Source: Alloascoidea hylecoeti (Eukaryota). From it: a DNA stretch of 64,000 bases. The notes under the pieces were generated by a model, which was not told the origin of the DNA, did not search any database, and worked only from the letters and a program-made list of their open reading frames with translations. This document shows positions 1,141 to 55,984 of this stretch, piece after piece. Position 1 is the stretch's first letter; each line of letters begins with the position of its first letter. The translations under genes were made by a program, and so were the position numbers. The stretch covers positions 475,622 through 539,621 of the forward strand of contig BCKZ01000011.1 in the NCBI GenBank assembly GCA_001600815.1, read 5' to 3'.

Positions 1141-4100
1141 GTGAAGGGGTATCATGATCGAACTTCTACATTCAATTAGTCCATTTTGACCCTTAAATTG
1201 TTCAGTTGTACAATATATAATGCTGTATTTATATGTTAATTATCAATTGTGAAATAACTAAGTTGCAGGTTAAATATGAGGTATAGATCAGGTGGCTTTG
1301 GGCTATTTCAATTAACGTCAGAGGAGACTCAAACCCCGGCAAAAACTTACAAAACTTACGGGGTATACCCTTTATATAATTTTGATTGGAAAGATCTCAT
1401 TTTAAACTAGTAAGTACAATTATGAATAAAAAATTCAATATATCAGGTTTTTGGTTTATACATGTGAAATCTAAGCTATGACAAGTTATTATTGCCACTA
1501 AGAACTAAAGAAGATTCATGATTGTTGACATTTTAGAGAGTCCTCCATTTTTCAATTAAATCATTGATCATTGTGCTTTCGATCTTCCAGATATTCCAGA
1601 TATTGAGTGTATTTTCATTTTTGTTTAATCATTCTATCTCTTTTTACTTATTAAACTCCACAACATTATATTGAAATTTGCACTGCTGTGCTTCTATTTT
1701 CAGTTTCAGCTATGCTGACACTTTGAGTGGATATAATGGTTATGGAATAAGAAGATGGATTATTAGTTACAGCTAGCTATTGTAATTCGAAATTACTCTA
1801 TATTTTTATTTAATAGCTGTCAGTAGTTAATCAAGAATTCAAGCGCTCGGTTTGTAAATTGCAATTGTATGTTAACTAAAGATTAACGATTCTTTATAAA
1901 TAGTCGCAGATCTGAAGTTAATTATAATTATGTTTATTGTTTTACATTTGCAACAATGACAAATTCATAATCATAATTAAGTTTTTAAATTGTATTGTCT
2001 CCCGGAGAGTGTCCATTTCTTTTGGGTACCATTTCACCATTCACATTCGCTTTGCATTCTTATTTCTTACACACTTAATAATAACAACAACAGTTTCATC
2101 GCAACACAAATGTAACAAAATATTTGTCAGTGGCTATGTGTACGATTACCGTTTGTTGTCTTAGACAATTGATTGTATTTAAGACAATCATCGATATTGC
2201 AGTAACTGTCAATATTACTAATTATTTATTAAAGATGTGTCAAATTTTCAAATTACTGGTTGTAATTACCGGTAAGGCTGTCATCGATATCCGAAGCCTT
2301 TAATTTCCAGAAACTTCAACCCTAAGATTATGGTTAATATTCATTGATCAATTTGTAGTTTATAAATTAAGGGATAACGTTAACACCTCTATTTATACCA
2401 GTACCAGTTTTATCATAATAGCGTTACATGCACTCTCAACAGCGCCGTTTCAATACTATAGTCATACCATAATTATGATTTCAAAAATGTTAAACAGCTA
2501 AATGAAACCATGCAATCTATGCAAAAATAAGTGGAGTTCAAACTTCGAAGAACAAAAAGGCGAATAGTATGAGCTAGTTAACGTTTCTGGTAATAAATAT
2601 AATGGCGTTAAGCTAATGTATTACATTACATGTGTAAATTGAATACGTTTAAATTTCTTAATTAACTTGCATTTTGACATGTCATTATATTTCTTTAAAA
2701 AATTTGAATTTATATCAGTTATATAATACTTAAGCTTATAGAAAACATACAGCCTTAACCTAAAGCACAACCCGCTTTGATTATTGCTTTCATTATTAAC
2801 TATTTAAAGGGTAGAAATAATTAATTATCAATTTTAAGGCTTTTCTATATGCATGATTATTACTTTAGTTTTGTTTTGAAGAGCTGGCAATTATGTGAGG
2901 ATCCGAATAGAATATATTGTAATTAGTTAGTAGCGCTAGCTATAGTCACATATCAACAAAATAGTTTAATATGAAATATATATCATATATATTAATGGGG
3001 GTTTTTTTTTTCACCCTAAGAGTTTGATCGCGAAAATAAAGGGAACCAATTATTAGAGTTATATGAATTTAAATGAATTTATAATTATAAATATGGTTAT
3101 GTAACCTTCGTGTAATATATTAATCATAAGTTCATAACTACAACTAGATATTATATACATCATGATCAACGCTAGCATTACATGAATTATTATATTCTAG
3201 ATTCATATCTAATAGTACACGTATATTCGATGTAATATGCATAATATTTAATTTAATTGGTAATTGCAATGAATTATAAGCTAACAGTTATTTAATAGAG
3301 AATAGATAATAGAGAAACCATCCCAATTGCAATGATATCCCAACCTTCTTATTTTTGTTGATAACAATATCGATATATCAAATTTTAACCTTTGTGCATC
3401 AAATCACCAAAGTTAACTGTATTAATTTACTTTGTGCATTACTATCGTTAAAGTTGGCAGTATAGCTAGTGCTAGGCTATTGTTAGAATAATGAGGTGGG
3501 GCAGAATCGATGTTTGTTGACGTCAGTTCAGAGAAAATGTTGTTAATTATAAGCTTCAGTAGTTAAAGGATCATCTTATTTGATAGGAATTAAATATTTA
3601 ATGTCTTCTATACAACAATCACAATGAACTCAGTAAATAGCGTAATTAAGTTGTAGAAAGGACGAATTGAGCTTGTCCTGCACACGTTAGTATGGTTAGC
3701 TAGCAATAAACTAATTAAGATGTGACTAATACACGAATTTTATTTAGTCCCGGAGGGCGATATGATACACTACAGAAAATCAATAATTATTGAGTTTACT
3801 CCCTGAGCTACGGGCTCTAATTTTTTCATGGATTACTATAATAATTATGTATAAAATTTGTAATTGAAGTTATCATTAAATTTAAATTCATATTATTAAA
3901 CCAATAATTATTACAACTTTAATTTTCAAGTTAGTGAACTGGAGACTGGAGTGATTCATACATGTATGCATATCATATCGCATTATTCTTTACATTTAAT
4001 TACCATAATTTGATTGATTGATTGATTATTAGTTATGAAAACGATATTATTTTGCAATTGAGAGCAAAATATTAATATTAGCGCTAGCTAGCAGGACAGC

Positions 4101-4469
4101 TATAAAGGATCAGGACTCAGGAGTTATAAATTATAATATTAGTTGTTATTATAATAAATGAATTGATTGAATAAAACAATTGCCGTTTCAAAGGCAGAAA
4201 CATGAGTAGACATGGTGCGGTCTAGAGGGGAAAAGTTTCAATATTATGTGTTCTGTCGGTTTTAAATGAATGCAATTGGATGATATAATCCATTGATTAT
4301 AAGACTAAAGCGATGTTAATATTAATAATTGATGTTTATAGACATTGTCCATTATATTCATATTAAATGAACATTGATATGAAAAGGGATGGAAGATATG
4401 ATATAATTATGAAGGAATGCAGCTGAAGATAAATTTAAGTGCAAAAGAAGGTTAAAGTTAATTAGCAGA

Positions 4470-4770
4470 AACCAGGGTGGACGGGTCTTTTGGAATAACG
4501 TTAGCGGGTCGGGAGACGTATTGTTGGGATGCCGGATAACTGGCGTCTTCCGGGGTGGAACCGGGGTGGAACCGGGCAGGGTTCGGGCAGGATTCGTTCA
4601 GATGCCACTGGCTGCCAGGCAACGCTCCTTCTGAGGCACGCAAGGCGGGAGTCTGAGTTTACAGGCTATTCTAGATGCTGTGTTGCCTGAACGACTGCTT
4701 GTAGAAAAGGCCCTGGTGGTCTCTCTTGTAGACCTGCCCAGGAGACCTGGTGCCCGGATACGCCCGGTGT
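4470..4770 (+). promoter_or_regulatory. GC-rich upstream region of the PUF gene
   Basis: Abrupt GC-rich island in AT-rich DNA with many GGG runs and a tandem CGGGGTGGAAC repeat (~4551-4575), 250-500 nt upstream of the ATG. Confidence 0.45.
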
Positions 4771-4953
4771 GTTTGATTTTGTATATATTATTCTTTATTC
4801 TTTCTTCTCAACAACTCCAAATTTATTCTTCCAGTTGTTTTTGTCCTTCAGCTGTTCTGTTTTTCCATCTTTCTTCCTTCTTGTTCTCGTCCAAATCGAC
4901 CCTCGTTGAGATATAAAAACAGCCACTTCACCACTCCAAGTATATCCCTTATT

Positions 4954-5013
4954 GTAAGCATTTCCATCCAACTTCACTTTTTCCGTCTTTCACATTTGAT
5001 TAACTCCTTTCAG
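4954..5013 (+). other. Putative 5'-UTR intron ending immediately before the start codon
   Basis: GTAAGC at 4954, branch-like GATTAAC at ~4998-5004, CAG at 5011-5013 directly followed by ATG. Its 60-nt length matches other introns in the window. Confidence 0.55.
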
Positions 5014-6415
5014 ATGGATCGCTATATTGAAGTCTCGGATCAGCGAGCAGATCTAAGCGCTGATGATGATTTGTACTACAATTACCAAAATGCCCATAAT
5101 CTCAATAGTTTGGGTGTTTCTGAGCCTGTAACTCCACCAGAAAATGAAAAGGAGAAGGTGGACCTCGGTACTAAACAATTTTCATTTGGGTTGAACCAAA
5201 CCTCCAACTCTTACAATCACCACCGTCAGGCCTCATCTTTCTCAGGAATGTCTCTTCATACTAATTCAACCTCTTTTTCCTCTTTCAACACGGCTGCTAC
5301 AACCCCAACAAGCTCAGATCTACTGGCTGGTGTTACTGGTCCTTTGTCTAAATCTCCTGCTGTTAATTTGTTAATGAATGAAAACCCTCATTCTTCAATC
5401 CCAACAACTTTACCAACAACTTTAAATCAAGCAAATCTTATCAATAACAATAACAATAATAATTCTTATTTTAGAAATAATATCAGATCAACTTCAATTT
5501 CCGCTCCTGTTTCAACTTTACCGCCTTTCACTTCTAACCCAACTAGATACAGTTGGATTTCTCCGTATGAAAATAATGATGAGTTATCTTTAAAATTACA
5601 ATCTTTAAGAATTGCTTCTCCTTCAATGTTAGATGAAAATTCTCTTCGAACTCCAACAAATAATAAATTCTTCAATCAACAACCATCCTCAAATATTAAT
5701 GAACATGTTCAAATCTCTTCATCTTCCTCAAATTATCCAACTTCTTCAAATGCAAGTGTCAATGGAAATGCAAATGTAAATGTAAATCCAAATTGGAGAT
5801 ATTCTCAAGATTTTGGTATTACTGATAGTAGATCATTAATTGAAAAATCGATCAATACCCCTGTTACTTCAAATATTAATTTTAATGAGCCTTTAAGTAT
5901 TGGAAATGGTAATGTAAATACTAATGATAATGGACTTGGAAATGGAATTAGAAACGGAATTGGAAATGGAGTACCTTTTAGAAATAGTGAAAGTATGACT
6001 AATTTACAACAAACTCCAACAAAACAATTTGGTCATTATCATTCTGTTTCTGCTTCTGTTTCCGATATTCCTTTTTATGCTCAAAGAGATTTTTTGTATA
6101 GAAGTAAGAATCTTCAACAACAAAAAACTACCAACTCTATGAATTTAAATGGTATGCCAAATGTAACATCTGCTAATAACTTTATGAATCAAAATATTAA
6201 TCAAACACCGATGTCAATGTCTATGGGTAATTTTGATAATAAACAACGTACTATGCGAGGATCTGTTTCACTTCCAATTGATCGTTCTTTTAGACAACAA
6301 ATGCAATTACAAATGCAAATTCCTTTAAATAATCCTGCTTCATTACCTTTACAATCTCCTGGTATTAATAATTCAAATGTAATGAATTTACAACAACAAT
6401 TAAATTCTAAAAATC

Positions 6416-33632: not shown

Positions 33633-33715
33633 TGTTGGAAATATATACTCTTGATCAGTCAACAAGAAGTCATATGGCTTTTTGGCGCAACGATACAATT
33701 AGTTTGAACTTAACG
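33633..33715 (+). mobile_element. Diverged solo copy of the ~90-bp mini-LTR at 44772-44862
   Basis: Starts TGTTGGA, shares the exact 17-mer TGGCTTTTTGGCGCAAC (33675-33691) and TTTGAACTT near the end, and ends TAACG instead of TAACA. TSD not preserved. Confidence 0.7.
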
Positions 33716-33824
33716 TATATATATCACGTGATATAGAACATCTATACACCCAATAATTATCAAATTTTATAACTAAAATCAAAAAATATTTTTTACTTGA
33801 CTTTTCTGTTTTTGATAATTTAAG

Positions 33825-42150: not shown

Positions 42151-43215
42151 AAAGCTCTTACTCTCTTCCTATTTCTCTATTATCTCCTTCTGATGGATCT
42201 TCCATGGTTGTGAATTTAACGTACGCATTCAACTAATTAATATTGCTTTCACACACACGATTGATTTCGCACCAATTTATGTTATGTACTTATTATTTAA
42301 CAATAGATTAGATTAAAACAGAATCAACAAATTATAATTACGGATTAGCTTTCTTGAACAACAATGGGTCAAACTTGGATATAGATAATTCACAAAATTC
42401 TGACACTGAAATAGAATCTCATACCAACAAATCTGCTGGACTTTCGACATCATCAGAAACAGAAACAGAAACACTGGAAAAATATAAACTTGCAATAAAT
42501 GAAATTCAGCATTGGGAAACGACACCCCAAATCTTCAGTAACTCATTTTCTAGCTCTTGATAAGTGTCTACCGCGACGTAACTACCTTCAATTCATTCAG
42601 GTACCAATAACATCACATTCCCAAACGTGAAGTAAAAAGCAAAGACTATCCTCTTCTGCTTCGTCAAATTCATCATCAAAATCCAATAAATCTTCAGACA
42701 TCCCAAGATTAGCTGAATCTTTAACATATTATCCTGAATGGCTAGAAATTACACGTGCAACACATAAATATTTTAATACCTCCTTGACACCTCTTCTAAC
42801 ACTGAATCAACTCCAAATAGTTCATTACAGAGAATCCCAGATATTTTAGCAAATTCAGATCCTGTAGAGTCAAAACTTGAACGTTCAAATCTGTTAAAAT
42901 TAATAGATGATTTGGGTTAAAGAAAATAGTTGATAAAAGTCTTCTTGGTATCCCAATGACTATTGATAAAAGCGCACCTTCTCATAGCAGTGAATTCCAA
43001 AGAAGTCTAATATAAGAGAACAACCACCAGAATATAGAAATAAAATGACGGATTATATTTGTGATTCATTAAAGATTGATAATAAAGTATGGAAAGGCGA
43101 TCGTTAGCTACAATTTATATATTAATAATATTTGTATAAGTTGGATACTAAGATGCTCATATTTGTTAAAGTATGATACCATGTAACATTGTGGTTAACG
43201 CTTGTAATTTATTAT

Positions 43216-43467
43216 TGTTGAATAGAATTAGATGTTGATTCCTGTTCGCTCATTGTTAATTGATGTCCTCAGATTGTATAAACACGTTGTTCTTAAACTC
43301 TTGGAAATTAAATATGAATATAATTATTATATTATATTTTTACGATATTTTCTAAAATGTGGGAATTCCTCCATATAAATTATGGAATCCCCAAAAACTA
43401 TTCAGTCTAATTAATCTAAATAATGAACTATAAAATTGTTCCACCATGTTCTTCCATATAATCAACA
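43216..43467 (-). repeat. Ty1/copia LTR (252 bp), left arm
   Basis: TGTTGA...TCAACA termini, preceded on the minus strand by the PPT GAGGGAG (43474-43468). Near-identical inverted copy at 44317-44563. Confidence 0.9.
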
Positions 43468-43493
43468 CTCCCTCTTAATTGTATTCAAGTCAC

Positions 43494-43984
43494 TTAAAGT
43501 GAGTTGTTCAATTTATCTCTTAATAATAGGAATTCACCCTTGGGTATGGGTTTAGTAAGATAATCACTTAGATTCAGTTTACCATCAATTTTGATAAGTT
43601 TTTCATTCCATGAATCTACCTCACCTTTTGATTTAGATTCTTTATTGAATCTCCTTCTTAACACTTTCAACTTGTTATCCAAGGTTTTTGTTCTCATCTT
43701 GTAATTCTTTATTCCAGTGATCCAATGAATTACTGGCATATTGTCTTCATAAATGTTGATTTCTACCTTTTTAAATAATCCCAAGATATTTGTCTTCAAT
43801 CGGTCTATTTTATCCATTGATAAATCTAACGAACAAAGTTCACTTTCTGAACTACTCTTGACATCAATTCTCATCAATTTGCTATGTTAGTAGATAATGT
43901 TGTTGTTCAATAACATCAAAGCACCAGAAGTACTATATCTATCATCTCTATCATTGGCGTGATCTGCATCAATATAAAAATCGA
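43494..43984 (-). pseudogene. Ty1/copia RNase H domain (pol C-terminus) with a stop at the conserved Trp
   Basis: IDFYIDADHANDRDDRYSTSG...IY*HSK...SSSESE...IYEDN...NLSDYLTKP, matching the copia RNase H motifs DADxAxD, RxSTSG, SSxExE, EDN and ADxLTK. TAA at 43889-43887. Confidence 0.9.
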
Positions 43985-44290
43985 TTGAAGACAAATATCT
44001 TGGGATTATTTAAAAAGGTAGAAATCAACATTTATGAAGACAATATGCCAGTAATTCATTGGATCACTGGAATAAAGAATTACAAGATGAGAACAAAAAC
44101 CTTGGATAACAAGTTGAAAGTGTTAAGAAGGAGATTCAATAAAGAATCTAAATCAAAAGGTGAGGTAGATTCATGGAATGAAAAACTTATCAAAATTGAT
44201 GGTAAACTGAATCTAAGTGATTATCTTACTAAACCCATACCCAAGGGTGAATTCCTATTATTAAGAGATAAATTGAACAACTCACTTTAA
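43982..44290 (+). pseudogene. Inverted duplicate of the copia RNase H C-terminal part
   Basis: Translation identical to the left arm (KTNILG...NNSL*). Confidence 0.9.
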
Positions 44291-44316
44291 GTGACTTGAA
44301 TACAATTAAGAAGGAG

Positions 44317-44563
44317 TGTTGATTATATGGAAGAACATGGTGGAAAAATAGTTCATTATTTAGATTAATTAGACTGAATAGTTTTTGGGGATTCCATAAT
44401 TTATATGGAGGAATTCCCACATTTTAGAAAATATCGTAAAAATATAATATAATAATTATATTCATATTTAATTTCCAAGAGTTTAAGAACAACGTGTTTA
44501 TACAATCTGAGGACATCAATTAACAATGAGCGAACAAGAATCAACATCTAATTCTATTCAACA
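44317..44563 (+). repeat. Ty1/copia LTR (247 bp), right arm
   Basis: PPT GAAGGAG upstream, TGTTGA...TCAACA termini, followed immediately by TGGTAGCG. Confidence 0.9.
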
Positions 44564-44574
44564 TGGTAGCGGCG
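44564..44574 (+). promoter_or_regulatory. Primer-binding site, tRNA-iMet type
   Basis: TGGTAGCGGCG directly after the LTR's CA. TGGTAGCG is complementary to the 3' end of yeast initiator tRNA-Met (the Ty1 PBS begins TGGTAGCGCC). Confidence 0.8.
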
Positions 44575-44771
44575 CCGCCCACGAGAGGCATCAGGTTCGA
44601 GTCCGCCGTAGGACGGTAGTTTACATCAGTCTAGTTGAGGCTTAGTAGGGTAACGCATAAATGGCCCGAAAGTAAAATGTCCGAGTCAGTCTGCAAGAAG
44701 TCCGCAACCCGAAAGATCACGGGCGTGAGCAGATATGGCGATTAGTAAAGTGACCTGACTAAGGTTGGGTG
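44564..44771 (+). mobile_element. Non-coding internal domain of a miniature LTR element (PBS, B-box, hairpins, G-rich PPT-like end)
   Basis: GC-rich 208 nt with no ORF in the track. GGTTCGAGTCC at 44594-44604, nested complementary segments, and AAGGTTGGGTG directly before a TG. Confidence 0.65.
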
Positions 44772-44862
44772 TGTTGGATATATTACACTCTTAGAACAGT
44801 TCACTAAAGAGTCAATTGGCTTTTTGGCGCAACTGGGAGAACAGGCACTTTGAACTTTAACA
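44772..44862 (+). repeat. 91-bp mini-LTR
   Basis: TGTT...AACA termini, followed by the TSD. Homologous solo copy at 33633-33715. No similarity to the copia LTR beyond the termini. Confidence 0.75.
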
Positions 44863-47327
44863 ATTATTCATAATGTATTTATAAATTTATCCATCTAGTT
44901 ATAATATTCAGTCTCTGTTATTTACATGAAAAGAGTTTGAGGTTTAAACAATTGCAACTTTAAATTATACAATTACGCTGTATATAAAAATCATAATCTA
45001 AGTAAGATATAGTTGGTGGAAATATAAACGCATACGACTTGTATTTATATTTCTCGTTCAAACACATGTAAGCCTTAAGCTTATAATTATATATCAATTA
45101 GGTTTGCTATAATTGCAATTCGTCATATTGCAATTATCATATTCCTTTTTATATAATTCCACCAAATTGTGTATGTAGTGATATTTTTGGAAATTAATTA
45201 ATCTACTCTTTGAAATTTGTTTGGTTTAAGAGGGGAAAAAACCACATATTTGTCTATATTACAACGATGGTAAAATTCAGCTGCAGAGCCTAATTATAAG
45301 AGAATGTAGTTAGTTCATATTTCATTTGTGTATTAAAATTTAAAGTATATTTTACAAAGCTCAAGAATTAATGATAATTATGAGCTAGTTAGCTTTATCT
45401 ATATTGCAATATGATCACTAGTGAGAGAATTCCAATTATTTTGCAATTCTATCATTACAATGCATTAATATTGATATTAAAGATCCCTCGATCACCTTGC
45501 GTGGTCAAAAAACTGGTGTTGTGTCATTGTGTTCGAATATATATAATTAAAATCACTAAATTTAAACAAATCTATATAATCATAATATATTAATATCTCA
45601 CTACTTTAGCAGTTAATTAAATTTAGCTATACTCTGACATTTATTCCAGTTGATGATTTTCAACGTTCTAATATACATAAATGTTGCAATATTGGTATCG
45701 TTGCTATCGTATCGTAATGATATTTAATCACTGCACGAATAAGTTGTCTCCATAGTCACGAAAATGGTTGTAGCAATTACCGATAATAATAAGTTCTATT
45801 TTATTAATGATAATGTGAGAACTGACTCAACTGAGCACTGAGCAATGAGCAATGCATATAAGCAATGAGCATACCTAGGCCTGTACTATATGTATTGTTA
45901 ATATTTATTAGAAAAACTAATACCAGGTAACAACTATTATCAATGTGTTTCGCTTTTGTATATAAATGACCAAAAAGGACATAGCATAGACGGAAAAGTC
46001 ATTGTACATGCAACCTACATAAATATTGCAAATAATCGTGATTGATAAAAGTGTGGTGACTGTGGTGTGGTCTATTCTTTCTTTCTATAAAATAATTAGG
46101 CTATGATTAATGCAAATTATGATATCAAATCAGAAATAAATTAATCTAGTGTCGCCACTTTCAATAATCTCTCAGTACCATGGTTATAACTTACAACAAT
46201 GAAAACAATCGATACTATGAATTTCATGAAACCCTTACATAGTACATACCAGTGTCGGTCCCTGATCGGGGTTTTCCCGATTATTTCAGATATTTGAGCC
46301 GATGGTTAGAAGTCAGAACCAAACATGTTTGTTCAATTTAACAGAAAATAAACAGAATCACGGCATAGGGAATTTATTACCGATCGCGGTGGTGAAGCCG
46401 TTACGTATACAGCTGTGGCTGCAGTTTTGCTAAAGTCATATAATTTTATATATATGCCTAGCTATATATATATGGTTGTAACTTATAACGTCAATTTCAG
46501 CCTTGGGTAGGGTTAGTACGATAAGTCGCCCATAACTGACTATTTATAATATAACAGAAACTTTATATAGCTATATAGAGTGAAATATACAATGTTTAAA
46601 AATGATTTTCTAAGATTATACACTTAAAATTTTGAAATTTTAAGCTTCATTATTATAATTAACAATGCATACCTATTACCTATATAAGTTTTATATATCA
46701 CATATACCGGCGTGTACTGATTTTTCTATCTATATCTTAACTTATAGATAAGGACAGCCACGGGGCGATATGAGTACCATACTTATTACTTAACATACTA
46801 CCAAATTTACCAATGCTGAGATGCTTAAGCTTAATTATAATCGATATACACCTTAATTGTAATATATATATTATTACCAGATGATGGTTAGCGCATATAA
46901 AACTTTATACATTCGAAAATGATGAGTAGATCTAGAACCTGCATGTATTACATGTAGTCATATAAAGATTATGGTGTATGAATAACGGGATGTATGTAAG
47001 GGAAACTTTAAAGTACAGGGCGGGATAATGTTTTGCAATTGGGCTCATGACCATTGCCATTTATCACAAGAGGTGAAGCCACACCTTTCTGGTTGTATCT
47101 TATCCCACGTGTGGATTACAAATTATATGTGCATTTCTGTAAGGAGGTTGAGCAATTTAGTTCTTCCTTGCTCACTTAAATATATATATAATTGCCAAAA
47201 GGAATCAATTTGTTCTGCTATAATACACCTTTTTATTATAAAAGATGCTTTGACTTAGAGATATAAGTATACTCTTACCTAATTCGATCAGTATTAGAAT
47301 GCTATGATCATGAATATATGTAAATAT

Positions 47328-52813: not shown

Positions 52814-53833
52814 CTAAACCTGTATATTTGAACATATTACAATAATATTCTAAACTTAAGCTTTATCTGACGAAGGAGAAAATATAACGCATATGGTTAT
52901 TACTGATTGGTATTGATCATCGTTAACTGCTCGGATATTAATTGTTATAAGCTCAAGCCATTTAACATGTTATCATTATAACTCATATAATGTAATATCA
53001 AAAGATTCATTCTACGCGTACATAAAATTCTTATAATTTGATTATATAATTAATATTTGATGCTAGATTAAGGATGAATTCGAAAAAATGTTATTCTGAT
53101 GATTTTCATTAAGGAAAGTTTACCTATTTATATACTAACCTATTTAATAACTGATATGAGCTCAGAGGGATGAAGTAGAAGTATGGTGATAGCAAAAGTT
53201 CTGAGGGGAACTGAAGTGAGAATGGAATGTTAAATATAATGAGTTTTTAGGTGATTGATTCACCTAAGTCAAGGTTCTAGCTTATTATAATTATATACAT
53301 ATATAGTAGATAGCTAGACTTTCCTTTACAGATACCTAACGGGTATACATATCCATCTACTGTTTTTATATCATATCATTTAAATTTGTGTATGTGTTGC
53401 ATACATGTACTGTACATATATTTTGTTTGTTTTTATCTCCGTTAACGTTCATTTTCACTCTTTTATTCCCCTTTTTTTTTTTCAAGTGGCCATAAAGGCT
53501 TTATCTTAAACTTTTATATCTATAAATACTATATTTATAACAACTAAAAAAATTGTGAAAATAAAAAAAAAATTACTAATGTCACCATTTCCTACTTTTA
53601 CTCAATCAATACTAATAAATGATCATGATATATCATCTGTACATGTGTACATCTTTCCTCTTTTTCTTTTTATGTCCGTAGCACCTAAGTGATTCAGAAC
53701 AAAGCTTTTTGTGGAGTCCCTTTCAATCATTTTAGACCATTGTGGTTCTGATAATTCTCCTGTTGTGATATTATTTTTTCAAGTGGCCATTAAGGCTCTA
53801 TTATCTTGGGGAGTGTAAATTTAAAAAAGTAAA

Positions 53834-53907
53834 TGGACGACACCGGAATCGAACCGGGGACCTCTCGCATGCTAAGCGAATGTGATAACCAACTACACCA
53901 GACGCCC
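53834..53907 (-). tRNA. tRNA-Ala(AGC)
   Basis: Cloverleaf with A-box TGGTGTAGTTGG, anticodon loop TTAGCAT, GGTTCGATTCC, G3:U70 pair and a downstream T-run. Confidence 0.95.
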
Positions 53908-53909
53908 TC

Positions 53910-54481
53910 CTATTGGAAGAAGAAAACATATCCAAATACTCGATTAAATCAATAAGCCAAAAGTGGTATAATAAAAACAAAATTATATTGAAACCAAACA
54001 AATGGATGCAGTTAATTCCGGAACTAAAAAATGAAAATTGGAAGAAATGGTGGGGATTTATCAAAGAAACATATAAGGAACACCCTGAGGAGACACAATG
54101 GATACATTTGCTCAGCTTGGGATGCATTACTCATATGCTACATCCTAACAAAAAAAGCAAAACAATGGTGGCAAAAATCTGATATTTGTAGTTTATGTCA
54201 ACAAGGTAAAGACAACATATTACATCTATTTGAAGATTGCTCAACCATAAGAATACTAAAGAAGATGATGTTAGGAAGCGATAGAATTGGGATCAAATTA
54301 TTGATCATAAATCCAAAAGATAACCATATAGAAAAAAATGGGGCTTTTATCAAAAAGGCACTAGAGCTAAGGAAAAATATTAGATTTGCAGGGACACCAC
54401 CACAAATATTAAATGAGATTGATTGGGGGATTCTAATATCTAAAAACTTGAAAAAGTAAAATATATCTAAAAAAAAAAAAA
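53910..54481 (+). mobile_element. 5'-truncated non-LTR retrotransposon (L1/Tx1-like) 3' end with poly(A)
   Basis: Two overlapping ORFs joined by a frameshift in an A5 run (~54173-54177) give ...WKKWW...HPNKKSKTMVAK-SDICSLCQQGKDNILHLFEDC (CCHC knuckle of ORF2). Stop at 54459, A-tract at 54469-54481. Confidence 0.75.
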
Positions 54482-54665
54482 TTTACTTTAAAGGTGGTCT
54501 AGGCACATAAGAAGGGAAGAAAGAAGACTGGCAAGAATACACAAAAATAAGAAGAATAGAAAAAGAGGTTTTATTTCACTATATATAGTAGAGATTTCCT
54601 CAGAATTTACATAGTTTCTAGTTATATAATTTAATTTGAAAATATATGAAAAGTTAAAAAAAAAA

Positions 54666-54793
54666 TTGGTTATCATTTCGCGAGTACATTTAAAATTTCT
54701 TAGATGCATTTTTATATTGGTTCGGAAACACATGCCACAGTTCTTGAGCTCATTAACAAGAAATGTTAAATGTACTCGCGAAATAATAACCAA
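54666..54793. repeat. 36-bp inverted repeat with 56-bp spacer
   Basis: 54666-54701 versus 54758-54793, 2 mismatches. Confidence 0.9.
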
Positions 54794-55510
54794 AGGAAGA
54801 ACCAAAATAATGACTATGTCATGATGAGTTCCTTCACATCTTCTCGTTTTCTTCTGTTAAATTCTATGGTTCCAAGGATCTCAGAAAAACATCCAAAGTT
54901 AAAAAAATAACATCTGGGGGGAGGAGGGGTTTAGTGGGTATTTCCAGGGGCCCTGGATTTACCAGAAGGGTTGAGTCTCCACACTGTTGTCTTACTGATG
55001 TAATGCTTCGTCCGTGAAATTAATTAAAAAAGAAATGTTGAAATAAATGATCCAGCTCTTACCCATATAATCTTCCTGATAATAACTAATGAAAATAAAT
55101 TACGAAACTATCAATCTGTTGGTTCAAGTTGATTTGATTACAGTTTTTCCTGATATTTTCGTTTCTAGTAATATGCATGCAACTCTACACATTACGATAT
55201 GAGGTAGTATATCATTTGAATATGTATGCACACAGATCTATGTAGAAGTTTCATCGCATTTATTAATGCAGGTGATTATATGCGAAGATGACTTTATTTG
55301 TCGTGAAATCTGTGGAAACCTACACAGTGAAGTAAGGTCAAAATTTATTTTTACCATTTGTCCTATTTAAGATATATGAATTGATTTTGCCACCATTGTT
55401 TTGCATTTTTATTATGATGTAGCATATGAGTAACATATCCCAAGCTGAGCAAATGTATCCATTCTGTGTTCTTATAAGTATATACTATCTTTTTTGATGA
55501 GCATGGAAGA

Positions 55511-55584
55511 GGGCGTCTGGTGTAGTTGGTTATCACATTCGCTTAGCATGCGAGAGGTCCCCGGTTCGATTCCGGTGTCGTCCA
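55511..55584 (+). tRNA. tRNA-Ala(AGC), identical to the copy at 53834-53907
   Basis: Same 74-nt sequence with a T-run terminator downstream. Confidence 0.95.
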
Positions 55585-55984
55585 TCTACTTTTTTAAATT
55601 TACGCTTTCCTTGACATCCTTTACTCGAGTAAGAAGTTGGAAATGGTGACAATAATACTATAAAAAGTAACAACATTACTCAAAAAAGAGTGAACTTCTA
55701 ACATTAGTAAGAGGTATTTTTGCCTAGTAATAGGTCTTTTTATTTTCATAATTTTTTGGTTGTTAAGAATAAAAGTTATAAATTATAAGTACAGTATCGG
55801 GTTTTATAGGGTGCCAAAACCCACGGTCCCGGATTAATAGCCATATTTTTAATAAGAAATACATGTATATTATTACAAATAAATGCCAAAATCATGCTCT
55901 ATCATCATAAATTATAATCATATATATATTTATATGGTTATATATCATTCGTTATTATTGGATGCTTCCTTAACATCTAACTCA

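Follow-up and report, generated by a model that had tools for sequence, protein, structure and literature searches.

A hybrid of inverted Ty1/copia and TRIM sequence in Alloascoidea hylecoeti, and its recurrence in the genome

Composite products of reverse transcription are already known from yeast Ty1 and from the Triticeae. The available text of Friedl et al. 2010 (PMC2939329) describes Ty1 'composite elements' in Saccharomyces cerevisiae, laboratory events involving transformed DNA and frequent in yku70 mutants, in which joins at 12-nt primer-copy ends were integrated as composites. Template-switch 'complex' insertions were reported from Triticeae, rice and maize (Sabot and Schulman 2007, PMC1950507), where they amounted to 2 of 400 insertions, and unrelated RNAs packaged together are expected to recombine only rarely (PMC6894440). 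Among the TRIMs, use of Copia by fungal Helenus has been inferred from its PBS and target-site duplication (TSD) in the accessible part of Kojima 2024 (PMC10886601), which also states that it is unknown how a TRIM devoid of LTR similarity depends on an autonomous element. A sugar beet survey (PMC13570524) reports, in its accessible part, chimeras between TRIM families and suggests use of 'any available machinery', with experiments pending.

Within the window, i.e. the whole 64-kb stretch of Alloascoidea hylecoeti DNA analyzed here, we identified a 1,647-bp insert flanked by two forward-strand copies of ATTAT (43211-43215 and 44863-44867) and ending on both sides exactly at LTR U5 termini (TG...CA). 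A read-derived contig of 2,496 nt from run X1 preserves the empty allele: it joins 43210 to 44863, skips 1,652 nt and keeps one ATTAT, with flank neither lost nor gained, at a depth of 62.1 of 119.9. Of four runs, X1 alone shows this allele, and X1 may derive from the very sample that was assembled; X3 and X4, being without cover at 42955-43176, are uninformative there. The first-pass annotation had proposed that a single ATTAT duplication brackets the molecule, had cautioned that this 5-mer is common, and had suggested a search for an empty site with one ATTAT. The 5-mer is indeed common (0.62% of those in the window), yet the recovered allele retains one copy, and therefore the repeat is a true TSD and a chance match is ruled out. 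The annotation also correctly placed an inverted copia LTR at the left end, a mini-LTR at the right end, and an inner copia LTR with a polypurine tract on one side and the PBS and mini-element body on the other; the two CA ends that it supposed integrase to have used are LTR termini, both of them U5. The exact 5-bp duplication relative to the empty allele, taken together with the LTR-terminus ends, supports a single, integrase-mediated LTR-retrotransposon insertion.

The largest feature of the insert, which was absent from that annotation, is a 587-bp inverted duplication with a 179-nt loop and a 5-nt microhomology join, 43216-43802 being an inverted copy of 43982-44563 (97.7% identity over 606 aligned nt). 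The left arm, on the reverse strand, consists of a 252-bp LTR of copia family A (43216-43467), whose U5 terminus bounds the insert on the left, the copia polypurine tract (43468-43480), and the 3' end of pol with the RNase H tail (43481-43802). It continues on the same strand into the unpaired loop (43803-43981), which is antisense pol sequence from the RT/RNase H boundary. At the turn-around junction CGATT (43982-43986, forward strand) the antisense run and the sense arm overlap, these five bases serving as the end of the former and the start of the latter, and they pair with 43798-43802. The right arm, on the forward strand, comprises the pol 3' end up to its stop codon (43982-44290), the polypurine tract (44304-44316) and a 247-bp internal family A LTR (44317-44563), so that only the pol tail of the copia internal region is present. 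Two other copies match positions 1-770 of the left arm plus loop, other family A copies diverge in sequence past the turn-around point, and the RNase H tail protein is 95-97% identical to that of other family A copies. The loop carries one stop codon at a position where another copy has Tyr; as a single T-to-A change from a Tyr codon, it is neither a G-to-A nor a RIP-like change. Both arms carry 14 sites that none of the 12 other aligned family A copies has, and only 3 events separate one arm from the other, so that they derive from one template or from sibling templates.

The family A part belongs to Ty1/copia given its copia-type RT, RNase H, polypurine tract and LTR order, and the copia-type Gag which follows the same LTR and PBS elsewhere. 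Its RT/RNase H region shares 38% identity with the PF07727-positive Pol of family E (E 3e-24), and an ORF after the same LTR in L125 matches PF14223 (E 9.4e-08); Pfam gave no match for the RNase H fragments of the window or for the L127 ORF.

The internal copia LTR is followed by a 12-nt PBS (44564-44575, forward strand), the exact complement of the 3' end of the host tRNA-iMet including its CCA, and the change to TRIM sequence falls at the end of this complement. The same PBS is common to the TRIM, to copia families A-E and to one gypsy family, and the host genome has three tRNA-Met(CAT) genes. The remainder of the insert, likewise on the forward strand, comprises a non-coding TRIM internal region (44576-44760), with one extra C directly after the PBS relative to other copies, a purine-rich tract (44761-44771) and a 91-bp TRIM LTR (44772-44862), whose U5 terminus closes the insert on the right; in intact TRIMs the PBS directly follows the same U5 end. 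We take 44594-44604 in the body to be a B-box-like motif and 44825-44836 in the LTR to be an A-box-like motif. The mini-element is multicopy and less than 1 kb long, with two short LTRs, a PBS, a polypurine tract and a TSD, and has no coding region; in plain copies with both ends found, an exact 5-bp TSD was seen in 7 of 7, and the LTR pairs are 97-100% identical. On all these structural features it can be classed as a TRIM.

The mini-LTR is, as the first-pass annotation held, unrelated to the copia LTR (local score 15, z -0.7), and the sequence common to the TRIM and copia A is limited to the 12 nt of the PBS. The TRIM does not appear to derive from the local families, given that its LTR and body are unlike the LTRs or leaders of families A-F (z at most 2.0); a by-eye resemblance to the family E leader is statistically not significant. 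The annotation had proposed comparing the sequence after the PBS of copia copies with the mini-element body: both copia A 5' ends examined (L037, L050) have the same LTR end followed by the PBS and gag, the mini body being absent, and hence the latter is not an ordinary copia leader.

It is quite probable, in our assessment, that the insert was dead on arrival, having been made when a single reverse-transcription reaction went astray in a Ty1/copia particle that held both family A and TRIM RNAs. A copia minus strand would be primed by tRNA-iMet, undergo a normal first transfer and run through U3, the polypurine tract and about 500 nt of pol. Its 3' end would then turn back at the CGATT microhomology, 179 nt behind it, and the minus-strand DNA would be copied to plus sense, yielding the RNase H tail, polypurine tract, LTR and 12 primer bases. 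Next, this PBS copy might pair with a completed TRIM minus strand, whose 3' end carries the PBS complement, with both strands being extended, and integrase would join both ends of the resulting 1,647-bp duplex, a copia U5 and a TRIM U5, to produce the 5-bp duplication. The top strand of the insert begins exactly at the start point of a tRNA-primed minus strand. The PPT-LTR-PBS order is absent from a normal element; under the established scheme of LTR replication (PMC7197481) it is expected when a plus strand stops on the copied primer. Of the template switch at the shared PBS and the co-packaged RNAs suggested in the first-pass annotation, the switch within the PBS stands, as does the entry of both elements into one reverse-transcription reaction. 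The PBS switch alone cannot make the inverted left half, which therefore needs a prior turn-around of the copia minus strand. The order of the steps and the residence of the two RNAs in one particle are inferred. Folding at the turn-around is no better than that of shuffles (z -0.75), and a pre-formed structure directing it was dropped. The loci examined included no intact family A element, the one candidate (L126) spanning a 3,509-N assembly gap, so that the family A enzymes are only candidates for the activity.

Related hybrids recur across the genome. A copia U5 precedes the TRIM body in 6 of the 20 TRIM bodies at exact PBS sites (copia A 1, B 3, C 2; among 75 such sites in all), and a seventh case is the fusion of family D to the TRIM at L013. 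Hairpin-type hybrids, with an inverted copy of the PBS-adjacent U5 at the left end and the TRIM 3' half at the right end, are present at seven loci, namely the window (family A), L006, L010 and L011 (B), L007 (C), L013 (D) and L009, which combines a TRIM U5 with foreign sequence around an N-filled center. Six of the seven have an exact 5-bp duplication, the expectation for two random 5-mers being 0.2%; L006 has no exact duplication, and the left end of a further family C hybrid, L002, was not found within about 4.5 kb. The TRIM takes part in every cross-family join among assigned families at the 75 sites (6 copia U5-TRIM body, 3 TRIM LTR-copia leader and 2 PBS-to-PBS loci). None of the 29 copia-LTR sites leads into another assigned copia family, and the gypsy family with the same PBS shows hybrids with the TRIM in 0 of 10 cases (p 0.07, not significant). 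Copia families A-D have unrelated LTRs, and their Gag proteins are 23-34% identical where alignable. The same route, operating with other copia families, probably made at least five more hybrids.

These loci bear on how the center of the hairpin formed. The same reverse-transcription origin and PBS transfer could be combined with a switch to a sibling minus strand, or with the integration of a longer palindrome that later lost its center by microhomology deletion; the 14 private sites would likewise be common to sibling RNAs transcribed from a single source copy. The loop polarity expected of a simple snap-back is seen in only 3 of the 7 hairpins (the window, L006 and L013), sense loops being found in L011 and, with short foreign inserts, in L007 and L010. 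Moreover, the family E hairpins L100 and L114 have the same loop in opposite orientations, suggesting that loops can flip or be remodeled. Against this, the loop in the window is an unbroken antisense extension of the left arm and ends in a 5-nt microhomology, just as snap-back predicts, and L006 and L013 share its geometry, so that a sibling-strand or remodeled center seems unlikely here.

A different origin, through post-integration rearrangement, would have separate copia and TRIM insertions fused by ectopic PBS recombination, by nesting and deletion, or by break-induced fold-back. TRIMs are nested in copia LTRs at L012 and L038, and in the Triticeae recombinant complexes outnumber template-switch complexes 20 to 2 (PMC1950507). 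Recombinants of separate insertions are, however, without a common TSD (PMC1950507), and the single exact duplication with both flanks intact, as read from the empty allele, largely refutes this origin. The insert also has no TRIM 5' LTR remnant and no second duplication, the 12 nt of shared sequence offer little for recombination, and the pattern recurs with matched duplications at 5 other loci, all of which makes a rearrangement highly improbable.

At the level of contigs, X2 record 11 (43087-43263) bridges the left junction with zero differences and includes, at the left end, one of the 3 differences between the arms, and at the right junction 24 LTR bases are covered in all 4 runs, which is below the 31-base rule. 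The two inner junctions come from the assembly only, being not visible among the contig pieces listed for X1-X4, none of which spans the stretch. At several arm-private sites the letter of the window is in no contig, which lends the interior no support but does not amount to absence given that contigs drop rare variants; at 43593 the alternative letter accounts for 462.2 of 462.2 in X1, 99.3 of 99.3 in X2 and 55 of 55 in X3. These observations, together with the N-filled centers of other hairpins such as L009, might point to an interior produced by misassembly or by an amplification chimera (a fold-back artefact) between two real ends. Yet the assembly has no N in 43000-45100, the arms differ by 3 events of which one is in a read-derived contig, and an artefact would not set both ends on U5 termini within a duplication that matches the empty allele; we give this explanation very little credence. 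Even were the interior wrong, a single insertion would still have the copia U5 at one end and the TRIM U5 at the other.

The first-pass annotation suggested that the structure would identify the copia family as the helper of the mini-element. This identification is not supported, given that the TRIM is also fused at the PBS to the U5 of families B, C and D: copia A is a helper candidate and not the helper, and the TRIM probably travels with several copia families. We lean, with modest confidence, towards the TRIM being a generalist passenger of copia particles primed by tRNA-iMet. Each integrated hybrid is a physical record of the RNAs that came together in a single reaction, and three copia families are named in this way, or four with L013. 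The helper question thereby becomes directly testable on native particles, and other genomes can be screened for a foreign U5 before a TRIM PBS under one TSD.

On its own, the insert is a dead fossil. The genome encodes an Argonaute (983-aa open frame) and RNase III. It is conceivable, though doubtful, that a generalist TRIM offers a PBS acceptor along with another end fit for integration and so regularly salvages hairpin cDNAs of its helpers that would otherwise be dead ends, and that the inverted repeats so planted (copia together with captured foreign sequence) are, by read-through, candidate siRNA sources against those helpers in an RNAi-competent yeast; if true, this would give palindromic silencing loci a reverse-transcription origin. 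The palindromic siRNA loci of Naumovozyma castellii are reportedly of Ty origin. As in the available text on those loci (bioRxiv 10.1101/2019.12.12.873604), a long inverted repeat is found here in a genome of budding-yeast type that encodes Argonaute and RNase III, with the difference that the present hairpin is known as DNA sequence and that both its predicted LTR promoters point away from its center.

The literature searched, in which older retrovirus and Ty1 work was thinly covered, yielded no TRIM-copia hybrid combining fold-back with PBS transfer and no such recurrence, which is weak evidence that this architecture is new to print; the family and chimera lists supplementing PMC13570524 and PMC10886601 may bear on its novelty. 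Relative to the Ty1 composites, as described in the available text of PMC2939329, the present case is natural, unites unrelated retroelement families and has a long fold-back. Ku loss, suggested there as a cause of many composites, was set aside here, as the genome has two Ku-domain genes that look intact, their open frames being 411 and 672 aa long. The complexes of Sabot and Schulman (PMC1950507) likewise have three LTRs within one 5-bp TSD and arose when two RNAs packaged together were reverse-transcribed in a single round; in those complexes, however, the copies belong to one family, lie in direct tandem and are joined at R, and their outer LTRs are nearly identical. The present insert has the flanking TSD and lacks near-identical direct outer LTRs and two complete internal regions: its outer LTRs, one of them inverted, are unrelated, the parts are joined at the PBS and both ends are U5. 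Autointegration inversion circles (accessible part of PMC7197481) also contain inverted retrotransposon DNA made inside the particle, with LTR ends joined to internal sites and no duplication; here a 5-nt microhomology within pol marks the breakpoint, and the duplication spans 587 bp. The mini-element resembles described TRIMs (Kojima 2024, PMC10886601; Yin 2014, PMC4079214; both as far as accessible) in its short identical LTRs, PBS, purine tract, 5-bp TSDs and lack of an ORF, and, as in TRIMs including the Pol III-type Cassandra and Helenus, its LTR is unlike those of autonomous elements. Its putative tRNA-type boxes are split between LTR and body, in contrast to the tRNA-like stretch inside the LTR described for Pol III-type TRIMs. 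Finally, where the accessible TRIM papers infer helpers from similarity, the fused molecules in this genome record the TRIM with at least four copia families.

The insert, 1,647 bp of N-free sequence (43216-44862) flanked by ATTAT on both sides, lies in a window of ~30% G+C with long, single-exon, eukaryotic ORFs, probably of a yeast-like fungus, from an assembly of 24.8 Mb in 136 contigs. Its left end is an inverted copia LTR (43216-43467, minus strand), followed by an inverted PPT and inverted pol tail (both minus), a 179-nt loop (43803-43981), the pol tail again in sense orientation with its PPT (both plus), a sense copia LTR (44317-44563, plus), the 12-nt PBS directly after it, ~195 bp of mini-element interior and, at the right end, a 91-bp mini-LTR. 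The entire left 587 bp repeats 43982-44563 in inverted orientation, a feature absent from the first-pass annotation. That annotation had read the ATTAT pair as bracketing a single insertion, with the caveat that this 5-mer is common and the advice to look for an empty site. ATTAT does make up 0.62% of window 5-mers; nonetheless the empty allele exists, as a contig from sequencing run X1 links 43210 to 44863 across one ATTAT at depth 62.1, and a separate X1 contig carries the filled allele at depth 57.8. The left junction is bridged by a contig from run X2 (48 LTR bases, 0 differences), and at the right flank a half-depth contig starting at 44839 in all four runs (X1-X4) holds 24 LTR bases, fewer than the 31 that the tool requires. 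X1 and X2 represent one sample, possibly that of the assembly itself, and X3 and X4 come from other studies. The two inner junctions are read from the assembly sequence; the window's letter at several arm-private sites occurs in no read-derived contig, but contigs lose rare variants, so that the interior is neither backed nor contradicted by them. In X1-X4, heterozygous regions yield paired contigs, each at half depth, which indicates a diploid source organism, and the insertion appears to be hemizygous. Within 42400-45050, divergence between the flanks of the empty haplotype and those of the filled one amounts to several percent (334 nt on the left contain 7 differences and 5 gap letters); this exceeds the divergence between the two inverted arms, so the insertion postdates the split of the haplotypes. 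The insert is a real, single, dead integrant, with its anatomy and single integration established. Its two direct LTRs share no common R region, and by this LTR comparison the product should be immobile.

At two other loci (L037, L050) the same large LTR, defining family A, leads into the PBS and a gag frame matching PF14223 (E 9.4e-08); this match, together with 38% identity of the family's RT/RNase H to a PF07727-positive Pol, assigns the LTR to copia. The family A gag frame (L037, L050, L125) opens within the LTR and crosses the PBS, and the hybrid consequently has an LTR-TRIM fusion frame of 44 codons (44511-44645). The mini-element is a multicopy TRIM with at least 56 matches (40 of 173 candidates scored) and exact 5-bp duplications in all seven plain copies with both ends located. 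Its LTR and interior show no resemblance to the LTRs and leaders of six autonomous families (z ≤2.0). All six share with it the 12-nt PBS, an exact complement of the 3' end of host tRNA-Met(CAT) genes, three of which were found; the exact PBS is present at 75 genome sites. Since the PBS-adjoining LTR end is U5 in every family, the insert has U5 at both ends. Among the copia families A-E the LTRs are unrelated and Gag identity is 23-34% over aligned parts, family B being classed as copia by Gag similarity to family C, with its own copia Pfam match absent. Family B LTRs (L010, L011, L113, L118) start with TA and carry AAAA before the PBS, and their duplications match solely when the non-CA end is counted as the integrated end. 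Elsewhere in the window, a diverged solo mini-LTR relative (33633-33716; 81% over 62 nt) is without an obvious matching duplication, and an inverted tRNA-Ala(AGC) pair (53812-55606; genes at 53834-53907, minus, and 55511-55584, plus) encloses a LINE-like 3' end (zf-RVT, E 0.0011); a poly(A) run lies near 54470, and a partial copy in inverted orientation occupies 55385-55467.

The top strand of the insert starts exactly at the point expected of a tRNA-primed copia minus strand. The antisense LTR-PPT-pol is one unbroken run, all 770 nt of which are matched in two other copies, and the switch to sense occurs at CGATT (43982-43986), 179 nt back, with five bases fitting either side. The sense arm terminates in PPT-LTR-PBS, as a plus strand does after copying its primer, and TRIM sequence begins at base 1 past the 12-nt tRNA complement. 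The arms differ by 3 events and have in common 14 sites found in none of 12 other aligned family A copies (four of which extend past the LTR); they thus derive from one template or siblings, although post-insertion conversion between them could contribute. The simplest account is a two-switch route, in which the copia minus strand would turn around, the plus strand would use the PBS to move to the minus strand of a TRIM, both strands would be filled in, and integration would proceed through the two U5 ends; we infer the step order and the co-packaging. The template switch at the PBS proposed earlier is retained, with TRIM beginning right after the 12 nt, but the additional minus-strand turn-around is needed. 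Retroviral strong-stop DNA is known to prime itself in vitro.

Seven loci combine a TRIM 3' half at right with an inverted copy of PBS-adjacent U5 at left: the window (family A), L006, L010 and L011 (B), L007 (C), L013 (D, lacking a short stretch at the PBS) and L009 (TRIM U5 together with foreign sequence). With left ends placed by LTR-end homology, independently of the duplication, six of the seven have an exact 5-bp duplication, the exception being L006. Only some of these hybrids are simple snap-backs: the loop is in sense orientation in L007, L010 and L011, and in the first two it also contains short foreign inserts. All 75 exact PBS sites were sorted by upstream and downstream sequence, the upstream side being unassigned in 17. 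TRIM interior lies downstream at 20, preceded by TRIM U5 at 14 (whole 5' LTR in 9) and copia U5 at six (A 1, B 3, C 2). At three sites a TRIM LTR leads into a copia leader (C 2, E 1), and PBS-to-PBS joins of TRIM and copia LTRs, each within a matching 5-mer, occur in L025 (A) and L118 (B). Of the 29 copia-LTR PBS sites, none continues into a different assigned copia family and one continues into an unassigned leader. Gypsy sites are homotypic in 10 of 10; joins to TRIM number 8/29 for copia versus 0/10 for gypsy (Fisher p 0.07, sites non-independent). Family E likewise shows fold-backs ahead of its own PBS (L100, L114, L108), so turning back is general in copia replication of this genome.

Several more complex structures were encountered. 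In L121 (3210-6289) a TRIM LTR stands at each end of gag-integrase sequence from family C (734-aa frame), which folds back to an inverted PBS, and an ATATA duplication encloses the element. TRIM hybrids in L025 (354-1894) and L113 (~4360-6320), each within a matching 5-mer, have captured coding sequences of ~190 codons that are related to each other, in hairpin or inverted form and polyadenylated in L113. In the TRIM of L130 (G000:C3:488500-496000; ~1950-4683), ~2.3 kb of non-TRIM sequence with a terminal poly(A) separates a partial 5' LTR from the final LTR bases ahead of the PBS, with an ATTAT duplication outside; the structure is either a retrocopy-like capture or a nested insertion. In L102 (4318-5480) two gypsy 5' ends lie head-to-head with a palindromic LTR fusion at the centre.

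The insert places templates of family A and TRIM in a single reaction, and the other fusions do the same for families B, C, D and E. The proposal that family A is the helper is not borne out, since these four are fused to TRIM as well; family A is probably one helper among several, and no intact element of this family turned up at the loci examined. The absence of copia-copia hybrids suggests, on small numbers, that each copia family forms its own particles and that TRIM enters all of them. The series provides a countable fossil record of one TRIM copied beside at least four unrelated copia families.

The genome encodes Argonaute and several RNase III genes, and in N. castellii palindromic loci are the source of 74.1% of siRNA reads (bioRxiv 10.1101/2019.12.12.873604). 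A transcript spanning the 587-bp hairpin, if made, would act as a trigger directed at family A; both LTR promoters point outward from the hairpin, and such a role is speculative.

Among known systems, Ty1 forms composites through joins at 12-nt primer-copy ends, which then integrate, mostly in yku70 mutants (PMC2939329), whereas two Ku genes, both with open frames, are present here. Cereal three-LTR complexes under one TSD are direct tandems of the same family (PMC1950507); the insert shares the flanking TSD but not identical outer LTRs. Helpers of TRIMs have so far been inferred via PBS, TSD or partial similarity, PMC10886601 calling the dependence unknown; use of any available machinery by non-autonomous elements is a suggestion of PMC13570524. 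Recombination across families is expected to be rare (PMC6894440), and the term "TRIM" is absent from a yeast transposon review (PMC7175516). No description of the fold-back and PBS-transfer architecture was found in the literature searched, in which older work is thinly covered. The insert is best viewed as a variant of known template-switch composites.
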